A DNA stretch of 61,569 nucleotides, filler included, from Anaerolineae bacterium (GCA_029262755.1; 8 parts of 8 records of this genome joined end to end with filler, not necessarily neighbours in it), one strand, 5' to 3'. Counted from the first letter of the whole stretch, positions 13,264-58,970 are shown. Translations and numbers: made by a program. Notes: generated by a model from the sequence alone, not told the origin.

Positions 13264-13363
13264 NNNNNNNNNNNNNNNNNNNNNNNNNNNNNNNNNNNNN
13301 NNNNNNNTTAATTAATTAANNNNNNNNNNNNNNNNNNNNNNNNNNNNNNNNNNNNNNNNNNNN
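13264..13363. other. Artificial contig linker (N44-TTAATTAATTAA-N44)
   Basis: N runs around a six-frame stop cassette; identical at 7 places in the window. Confidence 0.97.
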
Positions 13364-21527: not shown

Positions 21528-21627
21528 NNNNNNNNNNNNNNNNNNNNNNNNNNNNNNNNNNNNNNNNNNNNTTAATTAATTAANNNNNNNNNNNNNNNNN
21601 NNNNNNNNNNNNNNNNNNNNNNNNNNN
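21528..21627. other. Artificial contig linker
   Basis: N44-TTAATTAATTAA-N44. Confidence 0.97.
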
Positions 21628-28948: not shown

Positions 28949-29048
28949 NNNNNNNNNNNNNNNNNNNNNNNNNNNNNNNNNNNNNNNNNNNNTTAATTAA
29001 TTAANNNNNNNNNNNNNNNNNNNNNNNNNNNNNNNNNNNNNNNNNNNN
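28949..29048. other. Artificial contig linker
   Basis: N44-TTAATTAATTAA-N44. Confidence 0.97.
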
Positions 29049-36729: not shown

Positions 36730-36829
36730 NNNNNNNNNNNNNNNNNNNNNNNNNNNNNNNNNNNNNNNNNNNNTTAATTAATTAANNNNNNNNNNNNNNN
36801 NNNNNNNNNNNNNNNNNNNNNNNNNNNNN
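36730..36829. other. Artificial contig linker
   Basis: N44-TTAATTAATTAA-N44. Confidence 0.97.
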
Positions 36830-41651: not shown

Positions 41652-41751
41652 NNNNNNNNNNNNNNNNNNNNNNNNNNNNNNNNNNNNNNNNNNNNTTAAT
41701 TAATTAANNNNNNNNNNNNNNNNNNNNNNNNNNNNNNNNNNNNNNNNNNNN
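41652..41751. other. Artificial contig linker
   Basis: N44-TTAATTAATTAA-N44. Confidence 0.97.
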
Positions 41752-48633: not shown

Positions 48634-48733
48634 NNNNNNNNNNNNNNNNNNNNNNNNNNNNNNNNNNNNNNNNNNNNTTAATTAATTAANNNNNNNNNNN
48701 NNNNNNNNNNNNNNNNNNNNNNNNNNNNNNNNN
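48634..48733. other. Artificial contig linker
   Basis: N44-TTAATTAATTAA-N44. Confidence 0.97.
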
Positions 48734-48884
48734 GCGTTCGGGCGATCAACAGCGGCGCTCCGGTGCAAAGCGCGCCGCCGAGCTCCGCGCGACCCGCGGC
48801 GTCGAGGCCACGAGCGCGCGGGCGGCCACCGTCCTCGACACCACCGCAGCGCGCTTGCCCGCGGAAGGCGCCCCTAGTACCGCA

Positions 48885-50819
48885 ATGCGCCGACGGATCG
48901 CCCCAATCGTCATCGCGACGCTGATCGCGATCCTCATCTCGGCGTTCGCGCTGCCGCCCTCGTCCCCGCGCATCACCTCCGCTCGCATCGCGCCTGCCCC
49001 CATCGTCACCTCCGCGCTCCGCACCACGCTCCCGTCCGCCGCGACGTCTTCGCACCACGCGACGTCCCCGCTCGCCGCCGCGCCCGTCCTCACCACGCCC
49101 CCGCTCGCATCCACGCTCCCGCTCGCCGCGACCTCCGCGCTCACCGCCGCCACCCGCCCCGTGATCCTCGTCCACGGCTGGCACGGGCTTGAGGCCCGCG
49201 GCTTCGCGTGTGCGGACGGCGTCCTCGCCTACGACCAGGCCGGGCCGCCGACCGGTGTTTCGCCGCGCGGGGACGGCGAGTTCGGCGCGCTTGCCGATCG
49301 GATTGCGGCGGAGCGGCCCGTGTACGCCGCGCGCTGGAGCACGTCGCGCGCCCGCACGCAGCCGTTGGAGGAGGCCGGGGCCTGTCTGGCAGCACAGATC
49401 GCACAGGTGAGGGCGCAGACCGGCGCGTCGGCCGTCGACATCGTGGCGCACAGCATGGGCGGGCTCGTGGCGCGCGCGTATGTGGAAGGTCGTTCGCACG
49501 CCGCTCCCTATCGCGGCGATGTGGCGCGGATCATCACGCTCGGCACGCCGCACACGGGGGTTGCGCCGGACACGCTCGTTCGGCTCTACGCGTTGTTGAA
49601 CCTGGCGAATGCGCGCAACGGATTCTTGCCCTGCAACGCCGACCCGGGCACCTGCCAGCTGGCGCGCGAGTCGATGCGCGCATGGAATGTCGCAGCTTCG
49701 CCCAACGAGGCCGTGACGCAGACGCACGTGGCCGGCGCGCGATGGACGTGGACCGGCTGGCTGTTGCCCGGCCCGGACGACGGCTTGATTACGCTACCCA
49801 GCGCAGCCGCGGGCGGCACCGCGCTCGCGGACATCGCGGCCGGCCACCGCGTACCCGAAGCGCACGCCGCGATGTTCCATAGTCGCTACCATTATGTCAA
49901 TGGCGCACGGACCCTGCGCTGCCTCGCCGGCCTCCTCTCCCTCGGCGGGGCGGCGGCCTGCGATGCCCCGGACGCCCTCGGTTCGATCTCCGCGGGCGGT
50001 CCGTTTGGCCCCGGTACCACGCCCTCGACGGCCGCGCTGACCTACACGCCCCTTGAAGTCGCGGAGATCGAGGCGGGCGGCGCTTTCGAGGTCACGATCC
50101 CGCTCGATCCAGCGCCCGCCCCATCCGGCGGCTCCGGCGATCCCAGCGATCCCGCGGAACCCGGCGCGCCCCCGTCCCCGGCGCACGAGCGCGCGACGCG
50201 CATCGCCGCCGGCTGGGGCCCGGGCGGTGGCGCGGCGGAGCTGACGCTCGTCGATCCAACCGGCCGCGCATGGACGCGTGACACGCTCGCGGCCCTCGAC
50301 CCCAACGGCGCGTACACGGAGGTTCTGCGCGCGGACGGCTCAGGCGCGGCGGTGATCACGCTCTCGGACGCAGCGCGCGGGCGGTGGGCGGCGCGGGTGG
50401 CGCTGGCGGGCGGCGCCGCCACGGGGACAATCCCCGTCGCCGTCTTCGCGACCCAGTACGCTACGGTGCGGCTCGAGATCGAGGCGCCCGTGTGGGACGC
50501 CGCCACGGGTCGATTGCTTGTCTCCGCACGGCTGCTGGGAGTCGATCCGGCGATGGCGGACGCGCAAGAGGTCGTCGCGACGTGGCACCGGCCGGGGGCG
50601 CGAGGAGCGCTGCGCGTGGCCCTGCACGCCCGAGGCGCCGACGGAGCGGGTGGCGTGCGCTACGAGGGTGCTAGCAGGGCATCGTCCGTTGTAGGCTGGT
50701 CCCAACTAGACGTTCGGGCCACGGGCCACGGTCCCGACGGCGCGGCATATGCACGGCAGGCAAGCACGATGGTGCCGGGCGCGAAGGGCGCAGCCTGGCT
50801 ACCGTGGGCGGCTCGCTAG
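48885..50819 (+). CDS. Secreted alpha/beta hydrolase (lipase/PGAP1-like) with C-terminal beta-sandwich domains, ending AWLPWAAR
   Basis: Signal peptide, PVILVHGW, nucleophile AHSMGG, TLGTPHTG, DDGLI, EAH; ELTLVDPTG-type accessory domain. Confidence 0.8.
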   Translation: MRRRIAPIVIATLIAILISAFALPPSSPRITSARIAPAPIVTSALRTTLPSAATSSHHATSPLAAAPVLTTPPLASTLPLAATSALTAATRPVILVHGWHGLEARGFACADGVLAYDQAGPPTGVSPRGDGEFGALADRIAAERPVYAARWSTSRARTQPLEEAGACLAAQIAQVRAQTGASAVDIVAHSMGGLVARAYVEGRSHAAPYRGDVARIITLGTPHTGVAPDTLVRLYALLNLANARNGFLPCNADPGTCQLARESMRAWNVAASPNEAVTQTHVAGARWTWTGWLLPGPDDGLITLPSAAAGGTALADIAAGHRVPEAHAAMFHSRYHYVNGARTLRCLAGLLSLGGAAACDAPDALGSISAGGPFGPGTTPSTAALTYTPLEVAEIEAGGAFEVTIPLDPAPAPSGGSGDPSDPAEPGAPPSPAHERATRIAAGWGPGGGAAELTLVDPTGRAWTRDTLAALDPNGAYTEVLRADGSGAAVITLSDAARGRWAARVALAGGAATGTIPVAVFATQYATVRLEIEAPVWDAATGRLLVSARLLGVDPAMADAQEVVATWHRPGARGALRVALHARGADGAGGVRYEGASRASSVVGWSQLDVRATGHGPDGAAYARQASTMVPGAKGAAWLPWAAR

Positions 50820-50962
50820 CGCGCGATGTTGGCGTCGCTCGCGACCAGCTGCGTGGCGCGCGAGCTTCACGTACTTCGCGACCAGCCACGTTGCGCACGT
50901 GTCTCGCGACCACCCTGGTCGCTCGCCGGCACGCACGTCGCGCGCAACATCATCGACCCACG

Positions 50963-50997
50963 AAAAAGCCCCCGGTGGACGAATCCACCGGGGGCTT
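50963..50997 (-). terminator. Rho-independent terminator
   Basis: Perfect 14-bp stem AAGCCCCCGGTGGA/TCCACCGGGGGCTT with a TTCG loop and T5 tail on the minus strand; lies between convergent genes. Confidence 0.85.
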
Positions 50998-51088
50998 GTA
51001 TTCGGATCTTGCGGGCCATCGTGTTGCCGGTCGAGCGAGAACGCTTTGTGCTGAGTAGCTGATCGCGTCTCTTAGTGCGTGACGAAAC

Positions 51089-51682
51089 CTACGGGCAGGG
51101 TGCCACGACCGTCGGCCATGCCGTGTACGAGCCGCTCGAGCGCTTGCGCTCGACGCCGGCGACGCGGGCTCGGGAGCCGGAACCGACGATGCGGGGCTGC
51201 TCGCTGAAGAGCGAGAAGGTACCGCGCATGCTGTCCGGGCTCGTGAAGTTGCCGCGGATCATGTAGTCGTGCTTGGCGTAGACGACGCCGCTGCGCGGGT
51301 TGTCCTTGCCGGTGCAGGGGGCGCCGCGACAAATCGGGCCCTTGATGGGCTCGCGTCGCGAGGGCGCGCCGCTGATGCGGATCTCACGTGAGTCGCGTAC
51401 GCGCAGGATCCACTTGCCGTCGTGAATGCCGACACGATCGAAACTGCCGAACTCGTTCTGCGAAAGGTTGCCGGCCGACGTGTTGGCTCGGATGCCGCTG
51501 AGCCAGCGGGCATCCGCGGAAACGTCGAACTGGACGGAATCACCCGCGTCCGTAAGGCCGCACCAGTGACCGGCCGTCGGCTTAACGCCTGCGGCTTCCG
51601 CAGGCTGGACCGCCACGATCAGGGCGAGCGCGGCCGCGGCCGCGAATATTGGTAGGGCGGCGCGTCGTAGTCGATGGATCAT
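51089..51682 (-). CDS. Hypothetical secreted protein
   Basis: Signal peptide ending PAEA; AAGGAG RBS; beta-rich, Cys-containing; followed by the terminator. Confidence 0.65.
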   Translation of the reverse strand: MIHRLRRAALPIFAAAAALALIVAVQPAEAAGVKPTAGHWCGLTDAGDSVQFDVSADARWLSGIRANTSAGNLSQNEFGSFDRVGIHDGKWILRVRDSREIRISGAPSRREPIKGPICRGAPCTGKDNPRSGVVYAKHDYMIRGNFTSPDSMRGTFSLFSEQPRIVGSGSRARVAGVERKRSSGSYTAWPTVVAPCP

Positions 51683-51887
51683 AACGTCGCTACTCCTTCA
51701 TGCGGGTTGATACCCGCTTGTGTCGCGTTGGCTCGCGGCCGATAGGACCGCGCTTGGTTCGTATCATGCCCCAGGCAATCGTTACACGCTGTGAACTTTA
51801 CCACAGCCGAAGGGCCGGCGCGGTGGCCGCATCTTCAGCAACACCACGCCGGCCTTCGTTTCCTGGGCGGTTGTAATCGCCGAGGTG

Positions 51888-52187
51888 CTAGCCGAGCTCA
51901 TCGACCGGTACAGCCGTGAGCTCGATCTCGAGGCCGCCTACGATTCCGGCGACCACATTGTAAATCCAGACCTGCAGCGCGCCGATGACGAAGCCGATCA
52001 CGCCGTAGAGCAACGGTGCAAAGATTCCGAAGGCCGCCATCGTGATCGCGGTCTCCGGCTCACCCATGAGAGCGGCGATACCCGCGCCGATAAGGGCGAA
52101 TGCGCCGACGACAGCCATGAAGCCGCCGACGAGGAGCGCATAGATTTTGGCTGCAGAGAGGATGCCGACTCGTTGAATGCGGTACAT
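51888..52187 (-). CDS. Small 2-TM membrane protein, DUF3566-like
   Basis: MYRIQRVGILSAAK...IYNVVAGIVGGLEIEL pattern. Confidence 0.65.
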   Translation of the reverse strand: MYRIQRVGILSAAKIYALLVGGFMAVVGAFALIGAGIAALMGEPETAITMAAFGIFAPLLYGVIGFVIGALQVWIYNVVAGIVGGLEIELTAVPVDELG

Positions 52188-52281
52188 GGATGAATGGAAC
52201 CTCACAGGCAGGCGCCCGCGCGAGCGAATCGCGGAACAGCCGGGGCGAATCAAGATCGCTCTAGTGTTGGTATACGCAAGA

Positions 52282-52526
52282 CGGCCCCCGGTGTTGCTGG
52301 AGGCCGCCGTGAACCACGTGTGTAGCACAAATGTGGGAAGGCCGCCCCACCCCCGTCCCGTGCGCCGGTGCGATAATAGGGAGGAGCGGCCCTCTCGCAG
52401 AGCTATGACACTGGCGGCGGGGACGAGGGGACGGCCTCGCCCTGACGCACATTCTTGCCCTATCGCACGCATGGCTCACCGTGGGGCAAATCGTGCGCCT
52501 CATCGGGAGTCACACCGCGGGGCGCA
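52282..52526 (-). ncRNA. ssrS: Probable 6S RNA, elongated (about 245 nt)
   Basis: By-eye rod fold on the minus strand: GCCCC-CGGTGT/ACACCG-GGGGC terminal stem, GTGAGCCATG/CGTGGTTCAC stem, central bubble, AATGTG/CACATT stem and a long apical stem. The motif order TGAGCC..CAAGAATGTG..CACATT..GGTTCA matches E. coli 6S as I recall it. Confidence 0.6.
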
Positions 52527-52546
52527 CTTCAAGCCTCGGCACCGCG

Positions 52547-53881
52547 CTACGGCGAGACAGCCGTGGGCTGGGCGGCGCCGGCGCCTTCGCCTTCGGTTTC
52601 CCCCTCGGCGGCGTCGTCTTCGCCGACGTCCTCATTGCCGTCGCCGTCGCTGTCGCCGTCGCCTTCGCCGGTGCCGTCGCTGTGACCTTCACCGTCGGCT
52701 TCGCCCTCCGCACCCTCCGCATCTCCGCCGCCCATCTGCTGCAGCTGCTCGGCGAACTTCTCGCAGGGGTCCTCATCGTCGAGGCGGGGTGTAAACAGGA
52801 GGAAGTCGTAGGGCAGCGCGTCGTCGAAGTCAGCGGCGTAGTCCGCGGGGGTCGCCCGGTCCGCGGCGACCTCGAGGATCCCGAGAGACACGATGGTGGC
52901 GGCGGGGGCCAGACGCAAGAGTTGGAACGGAACGCCGCGATCGGTGCGGGCGTGGCCGTTGCCGGTGATCAAGATGCCGCCGTCCAGGCCGAGCTCCGTG
53001 GCGGATTCGACCAACCGGGAGGCCATGCCGCCGTCGCGCGCGCGTTGCGCGTCGGCCATGGGCGGGGCCATCTCTTCGGGCAGATAGCCGCAATGCGCGT
53101 CCACGATCTCTTGGACGAGGGCAGTCTGGGCCTCGTCCGGTAGCGGCATGTCTAGGCCGAGCGTCGCGAGCGTGTCTTCATCCGGCGGGGCGCCCATGCC
53201 GGAGACGCCCATGATGATGTCTTTGGGCACGTTGGCCGGCACGATCGCGACGTTACCCGCCAGGGCCGCCTCGGCGATGGGCTGGTACTGCTCCCACGCC
53301 GGCCAGCCGGACTCCTCCCAGCCGATCGCGTCGGCGATGCCGGCCGCGTCAAGCGGGTTCGCGGCCAGGTGGTCGTAGAGCGCCGCTTCTTGATCGGTGG
53401 TCATCTGCTCGAAGGCCACGACGGGCAGGCGGCCCAAGGTGATGATGCCCTCGACCAGCCAGGCCTGGATGCGGTGGTGATCCGGGTTGTCGTGCTTCTC
53501 GCCGAGCATCACGAAATCGGCCTCGGCGAGGCGGTGGACCAGGTCGATCGGCTCGACGAAGGCTGCGTCCGCCACGGACCACACCTGGCCGACCAGCGGA
53601 TCATCGGCGCGGACAACGGTGTCCCATGGCGGGACGGGTATCGGCGCGGGCGCGGCCGGAACGCGCGCGTTCTCATCGGAGGTCGGGTCAAGGTTGGTGC
53701 CGGGGTACGGATCGGTCATGAGGTCGGGGGTAGCCGTGCCGGCATCGGTAACGGGTTCCGCCGGCGGGGCGTCGACGGTCGCCGGGCCGCATGCGGAGAG
53801 GGTCAAGCCGGCGATCCCGAACAGGAGGGCGAAGGCGATCGCGGGCTGGGGAAGTCGGGGGCGGAAGACGCTGCGGTTCAT
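52547..53881 (-). CDS. ChaN-family (heme uptake/Tiki superfamily) lipoprotein with acidic tail
   Basis: Lipobox LSAC; MLGEKHDNPDHH, VAFEQM, WEESGWP, AHCG, AQRARD, ITGNGH; GAGGAG RBS before ATG 53881. Confidence 0.85.
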   Translation of the reverse strand: MNRSVFRPRLPQPAIAFALLFGIAGLTLSACGPATVDAPPAEPVTDAGTATPDLMTDPYPGTNLDPTSDENARVPAAPAPIPVPPWDTVVRADDPLVGQVWSVADAAFVEPIDLVHRLAEADFVMLGEKHDNPDHHRIQAWLVEGIITLGRLPVVAFEQMTTDQEAALYDHLAANPLDAAGIADAIGWEESGWPAWEQYQPIAEAALAGNVAIVPANVPKDIIMGVSGMGAPPDEDTLATLGLDMPLPDEAQTALVQEIVDAHCGYLPEEMAPPMADAQRARDGGMASRLVESATELGLDGGILITGNGHARTDRGVPFQLLRLAPAATIVSLGILEVAADRATPADYAADFDDALPYDFLLFTPRLDDEDPCEKFAEQLQQMGGGDAEGAEGEADGEGHSDGTGEGDGDSDGDGNEDVGEDDAAEGETEGEGAGAAQPTAVSP

Positions 53882-53947
53882 CTGGTGCTCCTCTGGCAAG
53901 GGAGACGGGAGTGGGATAAGCTCGCACGCCGGTCGGCGCGCCGGGTT

Positions 53948-53995
53948 GGGAACGGGACCGGGATCGGAATCGGGAATGGGACCGGAATCGGGACA
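53948..53995. repeat. 8 x degenerate 6-bp tandem repeat (GGGAxC-like) in a divergent promoter region
   Basis: gggaac gggacc gggatc ggaatc gggaat gggacc ggaatc gggaca. Confidence 0.6.
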
Positions 53996-54103
53996 TTCCC
54001 CACGCGGACCACCTGCTTGAAAATACGTCACGTTCAAGTGCGCACGGCGTCCTAGCTTGTTGTCGCACGCGCTCACGCTGCTCCGTTTCGAGGAGAATGC
54101 CTC

Positions 54104-56443
54104 ATGTCCCACATTCTGACACGCCGTCGCGCTCCTGTCTTGGGGGCGATGGCCGGCATGGCCGTGCTCCTCGCCCTCGTCGCGGCGGTGCCGGGTCGCG
54201 CGCAGGACACGCCCACGTTTGCGGTCGATGGCCCTGTTCCGGCCACAGGCGCGGGCGGCGTGATCGAGCACGTGGTGATCGTGACGAATACGGGCACCGT
54301 TTCAAGCGAGGTCGCGTTGTTGGTGGAAGGCGGCGCGTGGGAGGTCACGGTGCCGGATCCCGTGACCGTGGAGCCGGAAGCCGGCGCGGCCCTGACGATC
54401 CTGGTGCACGTGCCGCATGAGGTGGGCAACGGCGCGGTCGACGAGGCGCGGCTCCAGGTGGTGGCCGGCGATACCTCGGCCCCGTTCGCGCGGGCCTGGG
54501 GCGCGGATCTCGCGGGCGGAACGTTGGTGGCGGAGCGCACGCTCGCCAGCTGGACGGGCGGCCGTGTCGCCGCCGGCCGTTGGTTCGGCTGCCGCTTCGA
54601 CCTCGACGGGAGCGGGCAGGTGGACGCCACGGACACCGGGCTCGTCGCCGCGGCCTTCGGCCGGCGGGCCGACGACGGAACGGGTGCGGCCGACCCGCAC
54701 TATGACGCGGCGCTCGATCTCAACGGCGACGGCCGCATCGGCGCGGGCGACGTCCAGACGGTGGCCGGCGCGGAAGGCCAAGAGTGCGGTGCACCGACAT
54801 CGACCGACACCAGCGCGGCGCGTGAAGCGATGGACGCCGAGCTGCTCGAGACGCAGCTCGACGCGTTCCAACAGATCGCGGATGACCACGACGGCAATCG
54901 CGCGATCGGCACATCGGGCTACGAAGCGTCCGCGGACCACGTCGCGACGGAGCTCGAGCGCCTTGGATGGGTGGTCACGCGGCAGCGTAACAACTTTCCG
55001 CGTACGGGCATCGGCGAGGCGATCCTCGCGGTGCCGGGTGAGACCTTGGTGCGCGCGACCGACTACGATGCCTTCGGTGGCGGACCCTCGATGGACGTCA
55101 CGGGCACGCTCGTCGCCGTCGATCTGGTCTTCCCGCCCTCCAACGACAACACGAGCGGCTGTGAGGCCGAGGACTTTGCCGGCTTCCCAACCGGCGGCGT
55201 TGCGCTCATCCAGCGCGGCGGCTGCAACTTCCGAGTAAAGATCGATCTCGCGGCCGATGCGGGGGCCGTGGCGGCCGTCGTGTTCAATACGGGAACGGAG
55301 GGGCGGACGGACCTCTTCAACGGCAACGCCGGCAGCGGCTCGCCGATCCCCGCCATGCGCCTGACCTACGAGGCCGGCGCGCGGATCGCCGCTCGACTCG
55401 CCGCGGGCGAGGAGCTGCTGACGCGCGTGGCGGTGGAGATCACGGTGGAGGATCGCTTCGGCGACAACATCATTGCCGAGTGGCCGCACGGCGATCCCGA
55501 TCGCTTCATCATGGCGGGCGCGCACCTGGACTCCGTGCCGGCCGGCGCCGGGCTCAACGACAACGCGACGGGTTCGTCGGGCTTGCTCGTGCTGGCAGAA
55601 GTCATCGCCGAGGCCGAGCTGCGACCGCGTCATACGATCCGGCTCGCGTGGTGGGCCGCCGAGGAGATCGGTTTGCTCGGCTCCGCCCGCTATGTCTCGA
55701 CCCTGCCGCCCGAGGAACGCGCCAAGATCCTGTCCTATCTCAACTTCGACATGATCGGCTCGATCAACTACATCCGCGCGATCTACGACGGGGACGGCTC
55801 GGACTCGACGCGCAGCGAGCCCTTCGGCTCCGGTGAGTTGGAATGGGCCTTCCAGGCGCACTTCGACTCGCTTGGGCTAGCGCACGAACCGATCGGCGAT
55901 GTGATCTACCGGCGCAGCGACCATGCCTCCTTCAGCGAAGCGGGCATCCCGGTGGCCGGGCTGTTCTCGGGATTCAACCAGCCCAAGACAGCCGAGCAGG
56001 CCGCCAAATACGGCGGCCAAGAGGGCGCGAGCGCCGACCCCTGCTACCACCGGACCTGCGACGACATCGACAACGTGAACGTCGAGGGACTGGAGATCAT
56101 GGCCGACGCGATCGCGCACTCGGTGCTGCACTACGCCGAGGATCCCATCTTCCCGCTCGCCACGGGACGCGCGTACCCGTTGCAGCAGCCGGGCGCCGGC
56201 GCCTTGAGCGCGGCCGACGGGGCGCGGGCAGAGGAGCAGTTGCGCTCCGCGCTGGCTGCGCTCAGCGTCGAAGGCGGCTGTGCGGCGGCGTGGGTAGCCC
56301 ACGAGGCCGAGGTCGCGGCCGCCGCGGGTGGCGCGCTCGACCAACATGATGCGTTCGGGCCCGGCGCGCTCGGTGGTGAGCAAGCAGGGGAGCACGCAGG
56401 GGACCACGACGCGGCCGATCCACACCACCTTCCGATTCGATAG
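54104..56443 (+). CDS. Secreted M28 aminopeptidase with PA domain and dockerin-like paired EF-hand module
   Basis: Signal peptide; DLDGSGQVDATD...DLNGDGRIGAGD pair; PA domain SGCEAEDF...LIQRGGC; GAHLDSV, NDNATGS, AEEIGLLGS, LNFDMIGS, RSDH, PCYH. Confidence 0.9.
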   Translation: MSHILTRRRAPVLGAMAGMAVLLALVAAVPGRAQDTPTFAVDGPVPATGAGGVIEHVVIVTNTGTVSSEVALLVEGGAWEVTVPDPVTVEPEAGAALTILVHVPHEVGNGAVDEARLQVVAGDTSAPFARAWGADLAGGTLVAERTLASWTGGRVAAGRWFGCRFDLDGSGQVDATDTGLVAAAFGRRADDGTGAADPHYDAALDLNGDGRIGAGDVQTVAGAEGQECGAPTSTDTSAAREAMDAELLETQLDAFQQIADDHDGNRAIGTSGYEASADHVATELERLGWVVTRQRNNFPRTGIGEAILAVPGETLVRATDYDAFGGGPSMDVTGTLVAVDLVFPPSNDNTSGCEAEDFAGFPTGGVALIQRGGCNFRVKIDLAADAGAVAAVVFNTGTEGRTDLFNGNAGSGSPIPAMRLTYEAGARIAARLAAGEELLTRVAVEITVEDRFGDNIIAEWPHGDPDRFIMAGAHLDSVPAGAGLNDNATGSSGLLVLAEVIAEAELRPRHTIRLAWWAAEEIGLLGSARYVSTLPPEERAKILSYLNFDMIGSINYIRAIYDGDGSDSTRSEPFGSGELEWAFQAHFDSLGLAHEPIGDVIYRRSDHASFSEAGIPVAGLFSGFNQPKTAEQAAKYGGQEGASADPCYHRTCDDIDNVNVEGLEIMADAIAHSVLHYAEDPIFPLATGRAYPLQQPGAGALSAADGARAEEQLRSALAALSVEGGCAAAWVAHEAEVAAAAGGALDQHDAFGPGALGGEQAGEHAGDHDAADPHHLPIR

Positions 56444-56452
56444 GAGCCGATC

Positions 56453-57025
56453 ATGAAATTCTTGGGAGGATCGGACCGGTCGCTTTCGGCCCACGCACGA
56501 GCCCGTGGTCGAGCAGCGCGCCACGTCGTGCTCGCGGCGATCGGCGCGTTGGCGTTGGGCGGGCTCGCCTTGACCGCCGGCGCGCTTGACGCGCGGGTCG
56601 GCGCGGACGCGGCTGTGCATGCCCAAGGCGATGGCGAAGAGCACACGGAGCTTTGGGTGAGCGGTGCCCGCAATCTGGCGGCGTGGGACGCGACGCTGCT
56701 CTACGACGCGGCCGTGATCAGCCCGACGGGCGTCGCCTTGGGTCCCTTCGCGCCCGCCGACAGCGTGCAGTTGGCGATGGACGTGCGGCAGCAGGGACGT
56801 GTGCTCGTGGGCGGCTATTCCTCCGGCGACGAAGCGGCGACGGGCGATGGCCACCTCGCGACCGTGTCCTTCGTACGGCTGGACACGCGCAGCCCGCGCT
56901 TGCGGCTGGATCGCGCCGGTACCGGCGCGTACGACGCCGAGGGGCGCTCGATCGCGCCGCCGGCGCGGATCGTCATCGGCGGGCTCGCCGCTCCGGCCGT
57001 GTACCTGCCGTTGTTGGAGCGCTGA
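56453..57025 (+). CDS. Secreted stand-alone cohesin-like domain protein ending VYLPLLER
   Basis: Signal peptide ending VHAQ; NLAAWDATLLYDAAVI...GRVLVGGYS...TGDGHLATVSF matches the cohesin pattern; AGGAG RBS; 9 nt after the peptidase stop. Confidence 0.7.
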   Translation: MKFLGGSDRSLSAHARARGRAARHVVLAAIGALALGGLALTAGALDARVGADAAVHAQGDGEEHTELWVSGARNLAAWDATLLYDAAVISPTGVALGPFAPADSVQLAMDVRQQGRVLVGGYSSGDEAATGDGHLATVSFVRLDTRSPRLRLDRAGTGAYDAEGRSIAPPARIVIGGLAAPAVYLPLLER

Positions 57026-57245
57026 GGGATCTCCGCCGAGGAGAGTTTCCGGTTCTCGAAGGGGCCACTTGGATCGGGGGGTGGGGGTCGCGGATTGAGT
57101 GCGTCTGGTTACGTTTCGGCGAAGGTTATCGTCGGCACGGATAGCATGGCGCACGGGGAAGGACCGTTGCGGTTCCGTCGCCGGAGCACGACATCGAGGA
57201 TATCGGCGGCTCGCGTGCGATCGTGGGCTAGTGCGGGGGACAGTG

Positions 57246-58870
57246 ATGCGGACGACGATCGAGGCGCGAATGCGCGCCCAAGAACAGGCGCTGGTTGCGC
57301 TGGCGCGCGACGAGGCGTTTGCCGATGGCAGCCTCGACGGCGCGGCGCGCAGCCTCGCACGTGTAGCCTGCGAGACACTCGGTGTCGCACGAGCCGGGCT
57401 GTGGTTGTTGACCGAGGACAGCGCGAGCCTGCGCGCGGTGGCGATCCACCAAGCTGACACCGGTACGACAGCGGCCGCGCGAGACACATCGAGCGCCGAC
57501 GGCGTGTCGGACGCGCATGCGCATAGCGACGATGCCGCCGACGACGGCACGCGGAGACCGACGATAATTCTGGACGGCGATGGGCGCTATCGTGCGGCGC
57601 TCGAGTCGTCGCGCGCGATCGCGTTGGACGCCGTGCCGGTCGCGGGCGACGGCCCGGCGATCGGGGAGCGCTACTTCGCGCAACACGGGATCGGCGCCGC
57701 GTTGGACGCGGGCGTGTGCGTGAACGGTGCGCTGGCCGGCCTCGTTCGCGTGGAGCATCGCGGTGGGCCACGCGCTTGGACCATGGACGAGCGTGCCTTT
57801 GCCGCCTCGCTGGCCGATCTCGTCGTGCCCCTACTGCGCAGCAAGGCACTCCGGACCGCTGAACGCGCCTTGCAGCGGCAACAGATGGACTTCATGGCGG
57901 TCATCGAACAGGCGAGCGACATCGTTTCGGTCGTAGATGAAGAGGGCGTGATCCAATACCAAAGCCCGTCCGCGGAGCGATGGCTTGGCTTCACACGAGC
58001 GGAGGTCGTCGGACGCGAGGTGACCGACTTTACCCATCCGGACGATCTGGAGCACTCCACACGCGCCATGGAAACGATGCTGCGCGGTCGTGGCCGCGTG
58101 GCGCATGTGGCAACCCGCATCCGCCACAAGGACGGCTCCTGGCGCAGGCTGGAGTCGGCCGGCCACGTGCTATCGGGGCTGCACAATGGGCGGCGCGCGG
58201 TCGTGCTGATCGCCCGAGATGTCACGGAGCGAAGCGAGGCGGCGCAGGCGCTCCGCCACCGCGAGGCCTACTTCCGCGCGCTGATCGAAGGCGCGACGGA
58301 CATCATCGCCGTCCTGGCCGCCGACAGCACGGTGACCTACGTGAACCAATCCGCAGAGCGTTTGCTCGGCTTTGCACCCGAGGACGTTACCGGTAGGCCC
58401 TTTGACACCTTTGTGCCTGCCGCCAAGCGGGCCAAGCTGCGCCGTATCCTCGCCCGCAGCATCGAGCGCCCGGACCGGCCACTGCGCTTCGCGTTCGAGT
58501 TGCGTGCCAAGGACGGGCGATCCCTCGCCTTCGACGTCCAGGGCAAGGCGCTTCCGCCCGAAGCGGGCCTACGCGCTTTCCTGCTCGTCGCACGTGACGT
58601 CACGGATCGCAAGGAAGCGGAGCGCCGACTGCAAGAGCGGGAAGAACAGCTTCACCATGCGCAGAAGATGGAGGCCGTCGGGCGTCTCGGCGGCGGCGTC
58701 GCCCACGATTTCAACAACTTGCTGCAGGCGATCGGCGGCTATGCGGAGCTGCTCGCCCGAGCGAGCGGCCTGGAGGAGGGTGATCACGTACGCTTGGAAG
58801 GCATCCGCGATGCCGTGCGGCGCGCGACCTCGCTCACGCGGCAGCTGCTCGCCTTCAGCCGCAGGCAGGT
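57246..58870 (+). CDS. GAF-PAS-PAS sensor histidine kinase (3'-truncated)
   Basis: GAF (VEHRGGPRAWT), two PAS domains (YQSPS...HPDD...HKDGSW; YVNQS...AKDG), H-box HAQKMEAVGRLGGGVAHDFNNLL, QLLAFSRRQ. Confidence 0.9.
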
Positions 58871-58970
58871 NNNNNNNNNNNNNNNNNNNNNNNNNNNNNN
58901 NNNNNNNNNNNNNNTTAATTAATTAANNNNNNNNNNNNNNNNNNNNNNNNNNNNNNNNNNNNNNNNNNNN
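58871..58970. other. Artificial contig linker
   Basis: N44-TTAATTAATTAA-N44. Confidence 0.97.

Follow-up and report, generated by a model that had tools for sequence, protein, structure and literature searches.

In cellulosomes, anchoring scaffoldins that carry a single cohesin, such as the type II proteins SdbA and OlpB of C. thermocellum and ScaE of R. flavefaciens, provide a cell-associated cohesin partner for a dockerin-bearing protein. These scaffoldins are anchored by SLH repeats or by an LPXTG sortase signal. Cohesin and dockerin modules outside cellulosomes are established as domain occurrences in the accessible text of PMC9012536, and both this text and that of PMC6461901 cite Peer et al. 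(2009) on such non-cellulosomal modules. The accessible part of PMC6461901 also sets out a hypothetical "planctosome" of freshwater Planctomycetes, in which zinc peptidases (M12B and M14) are placed on a cohesin-bearing surface protein. Furthermore, NCBIfam describes a YLP-box as a putative sorting motif of Chloroflexota (models NF050076, sort_motif_YLP, and NF053834, ultrashort_CTERM). A gene pair with such modules was identified in the genome of an Anaerolineae bacterium (GCA_029262755.1), within a window of 61,569 nt (the whole stretch of DNA that was analysed, filler included). The first gene is predicted to encode an exported PA-M28 aminopeptidase, resembling the Pseudomonas aeruginosa aminopeptidase (PaAP), that carries a dockerin with a putative disulfide bracket in its N-terminal extension; the second is predicted to encode a small exported protein, here called the adaptor, with one cohesin followed by a YLP-type C-terminal tail. 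Domains, fold, conserved synteny, gene fusion and a predicted interface were all obtained by computation, and it is fairly probable that peptidase and adaptor bind through dockerin and cohesin, which would serve to couple the enzyme to the tail.

The window consists of eight separate contigs (C33, C35, C36, C37, C39, C40, C42, and C43) of a draft genome of 428 contigs, with N spacers between them. Genes on either side of such a joint are not true neighbours, and the real context of the pair is a contig of 10,137 bp (window 48734-58870). The two open reading frames (ORFs), of 779 and 190 aa, lie on the same strand with a gap of 9 nt (Table 1). An AGGAG ribosome-binding box upstream of the adaptor start overlaps the peptidase stop codon, which suggests that the two genes are translationally coupled. 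A single gene split by an assembly error or a frameshift was considered and rejected, because the same split occurs in five other genomes, each adaptor has its own leader, and the AGGAG box precedes the ATG.

The original prediction described a Cys-bracketed, duplicated calcium-binding loop on the M28 aminopeptidase. This region corresponded exactly to Cys163-Cys228, and Dockerin_1 matched aa 165-220 of the peptidase with 28.0 bits, over the cut-off of 22.9 (32.9 bits in a six-frame search of the genome). Both loops fit the pattern D-x-[DN]-x-[DNS]-G...D, each followed by a helix, which we take to be that of dockerin calcium loops. The two cysteines and the loop residues D166, G171, D205, and D216 were invariant in 12 orthologues, and C163 and C228 probably staple the ends of the internally inserted dockerin, presumably by a disulfide.

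The 190-aa protein had been proposed to be essentially one cohesin-like domain plus the terminal motif VYLPLLER, and the reading frame, the modelled domain and the tail were all recovered. The AlphaFold2 (AF2) model, built from an alignment of 31 sequences, had a mean predicted local distance difference test score (pLDDT) of 80.7, with values above 90 over approximately aa 60-170 and predicted strands at aa 56-175. When this model was compared with the PDB using Foldseek, 48 matches reached E ≤ 0.001, and all 37 of those listed were cohesins, with a best E value of 2.2e-5, a probability of 1.00, and a TM-score of up to 0.67 on the target. These matches covered cohesins of types I, II, and III as well as non-cellulosomal ones, including those of Clostridium perfringens and that of Archaeoglobus fulgidus (2xdh, 23% identity), which ranked with the best matches. 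Two adaptor orthologues exceeded the Pfam Cohesin cut-off (26.4 bits in G004 and 27.1 bits in G002), and the closest relative of the adaptor (P0002) has a precomputed PF00963 match. The adaptor therefore has a cohesin fold, since its orthologues pass Pfam, the AF2 model is confident and the listed Foldseek matches are all cohesins; the Pfam score of the single sequence is borderline. An exhaustive search of 1.84 billion representatives yielded 79 adaptor relatives at E ≤ 0.001. Metagenome contigs were scanned twice, with the lone adaptor and with an alignment of 5 sequences as query, and neither scan yielded a relative. A word-indexed protein search gave a single relative of similar length and no match in the longer size range.

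A complex of the two modules was predicted from aa 56-190 of the adaptor and aa 148-240 of the peptidase, with two calcium ions and custom alignments, in three runs and three controls. The interface score ipSAE was 0.91 in all three runs, the partner pLDDT was 75, and at least 95% of the contacts were common to the runs, whereas the best of the three controls reached 0.01. The mark used to calibrate this score was reached by 116 of 157 solved complexes and by 2 of 215 mismatched pairs. The confident, canonical interface agrees with the claim that the two modules dock, and memory of solved complexes may contribute to it. Contacts on the dockerin side were predicted at residues 175, 178, 182, 185-186, 207, 211, 213-219, and 221-224, that is, in the second loop and its helix (R211, G213-T219, and A221-E224) and in part of the first helix; those on the cohesin side lay at residues 76-79, 105-113, 118-125, and 156-166. 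The cohesin surface motifs [LM]A[AG][FWYS] and [TS][GST]x[FY] were kept in all 11 peptidase-linked copies. In the proposed mechanism, the dockerin would use its second calcium loop and helix (A214, G215, V217, and Q218), together with part of the first helix, to meet one face of the cohesin (residues 76-79, 120-125, and 160-164) outside the cytoplasm. Binding would be calcium-dependent, and the product would be a 1:1 complex that lends the peptidase in trans the YLP tail borne in cis by many large exported proteins of this genome, a tail that is presumed to hold proteins at the cell envelope.

Among the 17 species genomes of the family, 13 contained orthologues of the peptidase, with 14 copies in total; the four genomes in which none was found are 64-94% complete. 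These copies occurred in three states. Six copies from six genera were split as in this genome, with an adaptor gene directly downstream on the same strand that has its own hydrophobic leader and a [FYW]LP tail. Five copies from four genomes of one genus were fused into one frame (dockerin-PA-M28-linker-cohesin; 913-1105 open-frame residues) that ends ...AWLPWG... The remaining three copies, from two genera, had no cohesin downstream, and none was found with the adaptor as a query; these peptidases end in ALPWLGRP, ALPWLGLGRP, or YLPRLER. The expectation that the gene pair is conserved in relatives was thus upheld by six adjacent and five in-frame fused copies among the 14. In one split adaptor (G004, L019 478-1413, - strand), the frame extends approximately 50 residues beyond an AWLPLV motif, so that either the tail would not be at the extreme C-terminus or the frame may be disturbed.

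As the original prediction stated, the adaptor ends in a clear aromatic-LP motif (VYLPLLER) and the peptidase does not: in its C-terminus, ...DPHHLPIR, no aromatic residue precedes the LP. The split peptidases ended without a YLP-type motif, HHLPIR of this genome being the nearest to one. HHLPIR as a true tail was unsupported, as the other five split peptidases end in ...EVLR, ...VPQR, ...VPTR, ...LAWR, and ...APRR. Anchoring of the enzyme in trans gains an argument from the three cohesin-less orthologues, because in these the peptidase has a YLP-type tail of its own.

A maximum-likelihood tree (17 rows and 654 columns), whose root depends on moderate supports and on three outgroup rows, PA-M28 enzymes from a sister family, placed the fused copies in one clade (100/100) and the cohesin-less copies in another (100/100), both nested among split forms (supports 83/84 and 94/93). 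Because of this nesting, the two-gene state is probably ancestral in the family, and the most economical history would comprise an ancestral two-gene operon, one fusion, and one loss of the cohesin with the tail moved onto the enzyme. The tree bears on a different explanation, in which the cohesin-fold domain with its tail is a C-terminal module for carriage or sorting only and does not bind a dockerin, the adjacency stems from the break-up of one ancestral gene, and the dockerin has a different function, such as calcium-dependent stability or polymer binding. We regard this as quite improbable. The fused single-chain forms are in line with it, as are the occurrence of the tail behind many unrelated domains in the genome and the sub-threshold Pfam score of the adaptor. 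However, split forms are basal and the fusion is derived in the rooted tree, each split adaptor (6 of 6 genomes) has an export leader of its own, and both the predicted interface, with its wide distance from the best control, and the conserved surface motifs of the 11 peptidase-linked cohesins argue for binding.

Covariation of the dockerin with the presence of a cohesin also speaks for the pairing. The second dockerin repeat read DHDGRIGAADVQAVAG in nine aligned cohesin-linked copies (NGDGRIGAGDVQTVAG in G000), slightly altered in this genome and in the relative closest to it, and DHSG(A/E)(I/V)DR(R/G)DVETVV in the three cohesin-less copies. The positions altered in the latter are those with predicted cohesin contact, where small residues were replaced by arginines (one glycine in G001). 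This pattern is suggestive only as support for pairing.

The genome contained five Dockerin_1 matches at E ≤ 0.001, all over the cut-off, and 13 at E ≤ 1; for Cohesin, three matches were over the cut-off and seven had E ≤ 1. The proposed display system "for proteases" proved too general for this genome, because the aminopeptidase was the sole peptidase among the dockerin matches that were domain-scanned, namely those other than the three or four weaker matches on C44, C57, C288, and a 355-aa frame of C237. The other scanned dockerin proteins were a CAP-domain protein, giants with DUF11 repeats, and CarboxypepD_reg proteins, and no dockerin-bearing glycoside hydrolase was seen among the scanned matches. 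A 996-residue cohesin protein of the genome carries CBM96 domains. On contig C61 (L103 2306-4829), a cohesin-YLP protein (209 aa, 33.6 bits) overlaps by 4 nt with a 331-aa protein that ends in a membrane helix, has no Pfam family and is cohesin-like by the profile from the 31-sequence alignment alone (E 1.4e-6); the third gene encodes a CAP-domain protein with a Cys-bracketed C-terminal dockerin (26.0 bits). On contig C237 (L104/L105, approximately 19456-42769), a protein of 5629 residues with a dockerin at its end (25.2 bits) adjoins a DUF11-repeat protein of at least 1951 residues, whose end comprises a dockerin (34.5 bits), a cohesin-like stretch that was read by eye and has no Pfam or profile match, and the tail IFLPLVQR. 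Both contigs repeat the same dockerin, cohesin and tail logic.

Beyond this genome, 11 of 22 long representative relatives that were scanned had Dockerin_1 (E ≤ 0.001) in the cohesin's own chain, nine of them over 22.9 bits, and the dockerin often stood directly before the C-terminal cohesin and tail. Peptidase domains were present in six of the 22 (three S8, one C70/C39-like, one M23, and one M28). This domain scan makes the dockerin-cohesin-tail cassette a recurring C-terminal device, often on proteases, and the operon in the window would be this cassette spread over two chains. Dockerin and cohesin might also serve self-assembly and not anchoring, by forming head-to-tail chains or an intramolecular clasp, in which case the split operon would be a two-chain clasp that shapes or regulates the enzyme. 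The 11 same-chain cases, with the two modules often directly adjacent, are compatible with such a role, as are the presence of both modules in the fused peptidases, the sub-cut-off dockerin and cohesin matches before the tail on contig C296, and the dockerin before the by-eye cohesin-like stretch on C237. Nevertheless, we hold self-assembly in place of anchoring to be very unlikely: the split form, which is widespread and probably ancestral, has one module per chain and so forms no chains, and a clasp would be compatible with delivery of the tail, so that the two readings overlap. Pairwise contact, either 1:1 or clasp-like, is favoured as the essential feature because the split chains hold one module each and form no long chains. 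In relatives from the order (L112, L116, L113, L122, L125, and L127), large CarboxypepD_reg and cohesin proteins, two of them with a dockerin, adjoin small cohesin genes.

P186 of the adaptor tail was at least 90% conserved among 31 aligned small adaptor homologues. Across the genome, [FYW]LP within the last 14 residues occurred in 71 of 2562 coding-like ORFs, against approximately 13.8 expected from interior windows (355/66077), and this enrichment indicates that tails of the VYLPLLER type are beyond chance. The ORFs with such a tail were mostly large proteins, and the tail often followed Pro/Thr-rich linkers. By eye, the adaptor tail is the same motif as the YLP-box. The two YLP-box models cover 10-11 positions at the extreme C-terminus, with cut-offs of 15 bits (NF050076) and 10 bits (NF053834); among the eight tails tested with 24-residue queries, IFLPLVQR of C237 exceeded both (15.8 and 17.0 bits). 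A full-text search for the YLP-box or its two models found no literature. A tail was also common among the 79 representative adaptor relatives: 40 of them have [FYW]LP in the last 14 residues, including 24 of the 34 with up to 260 residues, and in five of the 79 a membrane helix with basic residues stands in place of the tail. Several other representative relatives have C-termini that by eye resemble those of the type IX secretion system (T9SS). Small cohesin proteins elsewhere in the order end in a membrane segment with a cytoplasmic zinc ribbon, or in a lamin-tail domain. Because related cohesins bear a membrane helix, a zinc-ribbon membrane segment, a lamin-tail domain or LysM in its place, the YLP tail may act as an anchor equivalent that keeps proteins at the envelope.

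A broader and more tentative possibility is that the cohesin-dockerin pair is a tag-delivery device, by which the YLP tail would reach one and the same aminopeptidase on one of three routes: directly, by way of a fused cohesin, or by way of a separate adaptor of 190 residues; the tail would then be a transferable, self-sufficient signal for retention at the envelope. If so, the adaptor (approximately 130 folded residues plus 8) would be the smallest natural substrate for finding the machinery or receptor of the YLP-box, and the sorting route would mark approximately 70 exported proteins in this genome alone.

Several observations weigh against the coupling of peptidase and tail by a dedicated pair. 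The covariation in the second dockerin repeat amounts to one evolutionary event. The dockerin is kept in the three cohesin-less orthologues with its calcium loops and Cys bracket intact, and further cohesin matches number 3, 4, and 11 in the genomes concerned, so that the neighbouring cohesin is not necessarily the dedicated partner of this dockerin. The Pfam Cohesin (PF00963) score of the adaptor itself was below the cut-off (18.4 against 24.1 bits, E 0.0026). The complex score may stem from the model's memory of solved cohesin-dockerin structures and would then speak for compatibility, not specificity. In the AF2 model, an N-terminal hydrophobic helix was predicted with low confidence at aa 19-40 of the adaptor; this stretch might be removed as a leader or stay uncleaved as an anchor, and in the latter case the tail might be unnecessary for anchoring. 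At 20 more distant cohesin loci of the order, a dockerin was found nearby in two by Pfam (E < 0.01, one over the cut-off) and in one by a regular expression, and this rarity indicates that dockerin adjacency is not general for distant cohesin paralogues. A scan of whole proteins gave no match to the YLP-box models, and 24-residue queries with the tails of the adaptor and the peptidase and with five other tails gave none at E ≤ 10, HMMER filters being apt to drop short, weak matches. In addition, contig C8 (L136, 40056-41366) encodes a protein of 437 residues that combines a leader and one cohesin (33.3 bits) with three LysM domains and is likely a peptidoglycan-bound docking site; it could take the dockerin of the peptidase, and other cohesins of the genome could also accept it.

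These last points raise an alternative in which the peptidase docks mainly on another, wall-bound cohesin, with the C8 protein, which has likely counterparts throughout the family, as the best candidate. The adjacent cohesin-YLP protein would in that case serve a different function, acting for instance as a competitor, regulator or chaperone of the dockerin. Apart from the domains of the C8 protein, this is consistent with cohesin frames of similar size (408-453 residues) in G001, G008, G009, and G014 and with the persistence of the dockerin in orthologues that lack a neighbouring cohesin. On the other hand, adjacency in six genera, in-frame fusion in one genus, and translational coupling favour the neighbour, and the contact residues of the dockerin are altered exactly where the neighbour was lost. 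Docking mainly on a wall-bound cohesin thus appears unlikely, and coupling of the peptidase to the tail of the adjacent adaptor is the reading retained here.

The enzyme itself comprises a leader, an N-terminal beta-rich region, the dockerin, a protease-associated (PA) domain, the M28 domain, and an acidic and His-rich C-terminal extension that ends in HHLPIR. The leader is predicted to serve export and is possibly Tat-like (RRR). Membership in Peptidase_M28 (PF04389) with PA (PF02225) was indicated by domain scores over the cut-offs. Residues H474, D476, D486, E520, E521, D549, and H649 of the M28 domain were invariant in the 12 orthologues; the zinc ligands are presumably among these metal-site residues, and by its sequence the peptidase looks active. 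The core (aa 242-672) aligned with PaAP of P. aeruginosa (8ac9, "Keratinase KP1") with E 5e-95, and the M28 domain also aligned with the Streptomyces griseus aminopeptidase 1cp7. A scan of species genomes with the peptidase gave 174 relatives, the best 80 of which aligned only inside residues 192-707, mostly at approximately 220-680. These best 80 were generic PA-M28 enzymes from Pseudomonas, actinobacteria and others and were uninformative on the pairing with a cohesin. Because the matches of relatives cover the core only, the first approximately 240 residues are a lineage-specific add-on, made up of the leader, a beta-rich region to which Pfam assigns no family, and the dockerin. A word-indexed protein search with residues 40-245 recovered the query alone. 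The C-terminal extension of approximately 100 residues (aa 673-779, window 56120-56440, + strand) reads ...GEHAGDHDAADPHHLPIR and its counterpart in the nearest relative ...SHGHSHSHPGAEVLR; this extension may bind metal or act as a propeptide.

Table 1. Positions of the features of the gene pair, of one further gene on its contig, and of the joints in the window.
Feature	Position in window	Strand	Source or remark
Secreted PA-M28 aminopeptidase gene, 779 aa	54104..56443	+	ORF, Pfam, alignment to PaAP
Predicted N-terminal export leader (MSHILTRRRAPVLGAMAGMAVLLALVAAVPGRAQ)	54104..54205	+	read from sequence
Dockerin, Cys163 to Cys228, two calcium-type loops (DLDGSGQVDATD and DLNGDGRIGAGD)	54590..54787	+	Pfam Dockerin_1 (PF00404)
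PA (protease-associated) domain, aa 332-428	55097..55387	+	Pfam PA, 60.4 bits
M28 metallopeptidase catalytic domain, aa 455-672	55466..56119	+	Pfam Peptidase_M28, 142.9 bits
AGGAG ribosome-binding box	56442..56446	+	6 nt 5' of adaptor ATG; overlaps peptidase stop TAG (56441-56443)
Adaptor gene, 190 aa: hydrophobic leader or anchor, one cohesin, YLP-type tail	56453..57025	+	ORF, AF2, Foldseek
Cohesin beta-sandwich, approximately aa 56-176	56618..56980	+	AF2 model, Foldseek, Pfam of orthologues
C-terminal tail VYLPLLER, aa 183-190	56999..57022	+	resembles YLP-box
Secreted alpha/beta-hydrolase (lipase-like), 654 aa	48855..50819	+	same contig; Pfam PGAP1, Lipase_2, Abhydrolase_1
N spacers	13264-13363, 21528-21627, 28949-29048, 36730-36829, 41652-41751, 48634-48733, 58871-58970		joints between contigs

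Other genes lie on the contig of the pair. The alpha/beta-hydrolase bears its own YLP-type tail (...GAAWLPWAAR). A divergent gene (52547-54271, - strand) encodes a ChaN/Tiki-type, haem-binding lipoprotein-like product (Cofac_haem_bdg, 134 bits) with a long C-terminal tail rich in Gly, Asp, and Glu. A GAF-PAS-PAS-HisKA sensor kinase gene (57099-58870, + strand) starts 74 nt past the adaptor gene and is truncated by the contig end.

Outside cellulosomes, knowledge of cohesin-dockerin pairing comes mostly from domain counts, and the present family places three states of one enzyme side by side. The specific pairing and its purpose could be tested with two small recombinant modules. The pairing is tied to the YLP tail, which is a very common and mechanistically unexplained C-terminal tag of Chloroflexota surface proteins. 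The means by which this tail is held would amount to a new route of sorting or retention in a major phylum that is mostly uncultured. From a practical point of view, the two modules might provide a compact, possibly orthogonal plug-and-socket set for protein display.

The locus has in common with cellulosomal systems the cohesin fold, the dockerin with two calcium loops, and the predicted contact of dockerin helices with one cohesin face, and the adaptor matched in fold, among others, the solved complexes 2b59, 1ohz, and 4iu3. As with the anchoring scaffoldins, a dockerin protein is matched by a cohesin partner that would be cell-associated. The combination of a multi-cohesin scaffoldin bearing a carbohydrate-binding module (CBM) with dockerin-bearing glycoside hydrolases, by which a cellulosome is recognized, was not found; unlike in a cellulosome, there is no glycoside hydrolase, CBM or multi-cohesin scaffoldin here, and the enzyme carried is a peptidase whose partner holds one cohesin. 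Cellulosomal dockerins are C-terminal, whereas that of the peptidase is internal and bracketed by two invariant cysteines. Furthermore, the adaptor ends in an 8-residue YLP-type tail, not in SLH repeats or an LPXTG signal as anchoring scaffoldins do. PaAP (8ac7 and 8ac9) and the S. griseus aminopeptidase (1cp7) have the PA and M28 catalytic core in common with the peptidase, but enzymes of the PaAP type lack the N-terminal extension of approximately 240 residues (beta-rich region and dockerin) and a cohesin partner. With the YLP-box, the adaptor tail shares a very short [aromatic]-L-P-x-x-x-[R/K] signature at the extreme C-terminus of exported proteins; the YLP-box models report the C237 tail, but neither VYLPLLER of the adaptor nor the other tails of the window.

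A dockerin-bearing peptidase with a cohesin partner is not new in kind, because non-cellulosomal pairs and the planctosome proposal precede it. As far as the accessible texts on these go, pairing outside plant cell-wall degradation is common to all of them, and the planctosome cargo likewise consists of peptidases. In the literature searched, mostly as abstracts, nothing was found on this specific operon with an internal, disulfide-bracketed dockerin on a PaAP-like enzyme, which appears to be new. Compared with the planctosome as described in the accessible part of its source, the present system is an operon of one enzyme and one adaptor, the enzyme is of the PA-M28 and not the M12B or M14 type, and the presumed retention element is a YLP tail and not a lamin-tail domain. 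The planctosome is itself hypothetical, and unlike in the accessible descriptions of it and of other non-cellulosomal modules, split, fused and cohesin-less forms occur here within one family. A cohesin carrier with a YLP tail as its sole other feature appears to be new, as does a natural series of split, fused and partner-less enzymes that assigns the cohesin-dockerin pairing a purpose.

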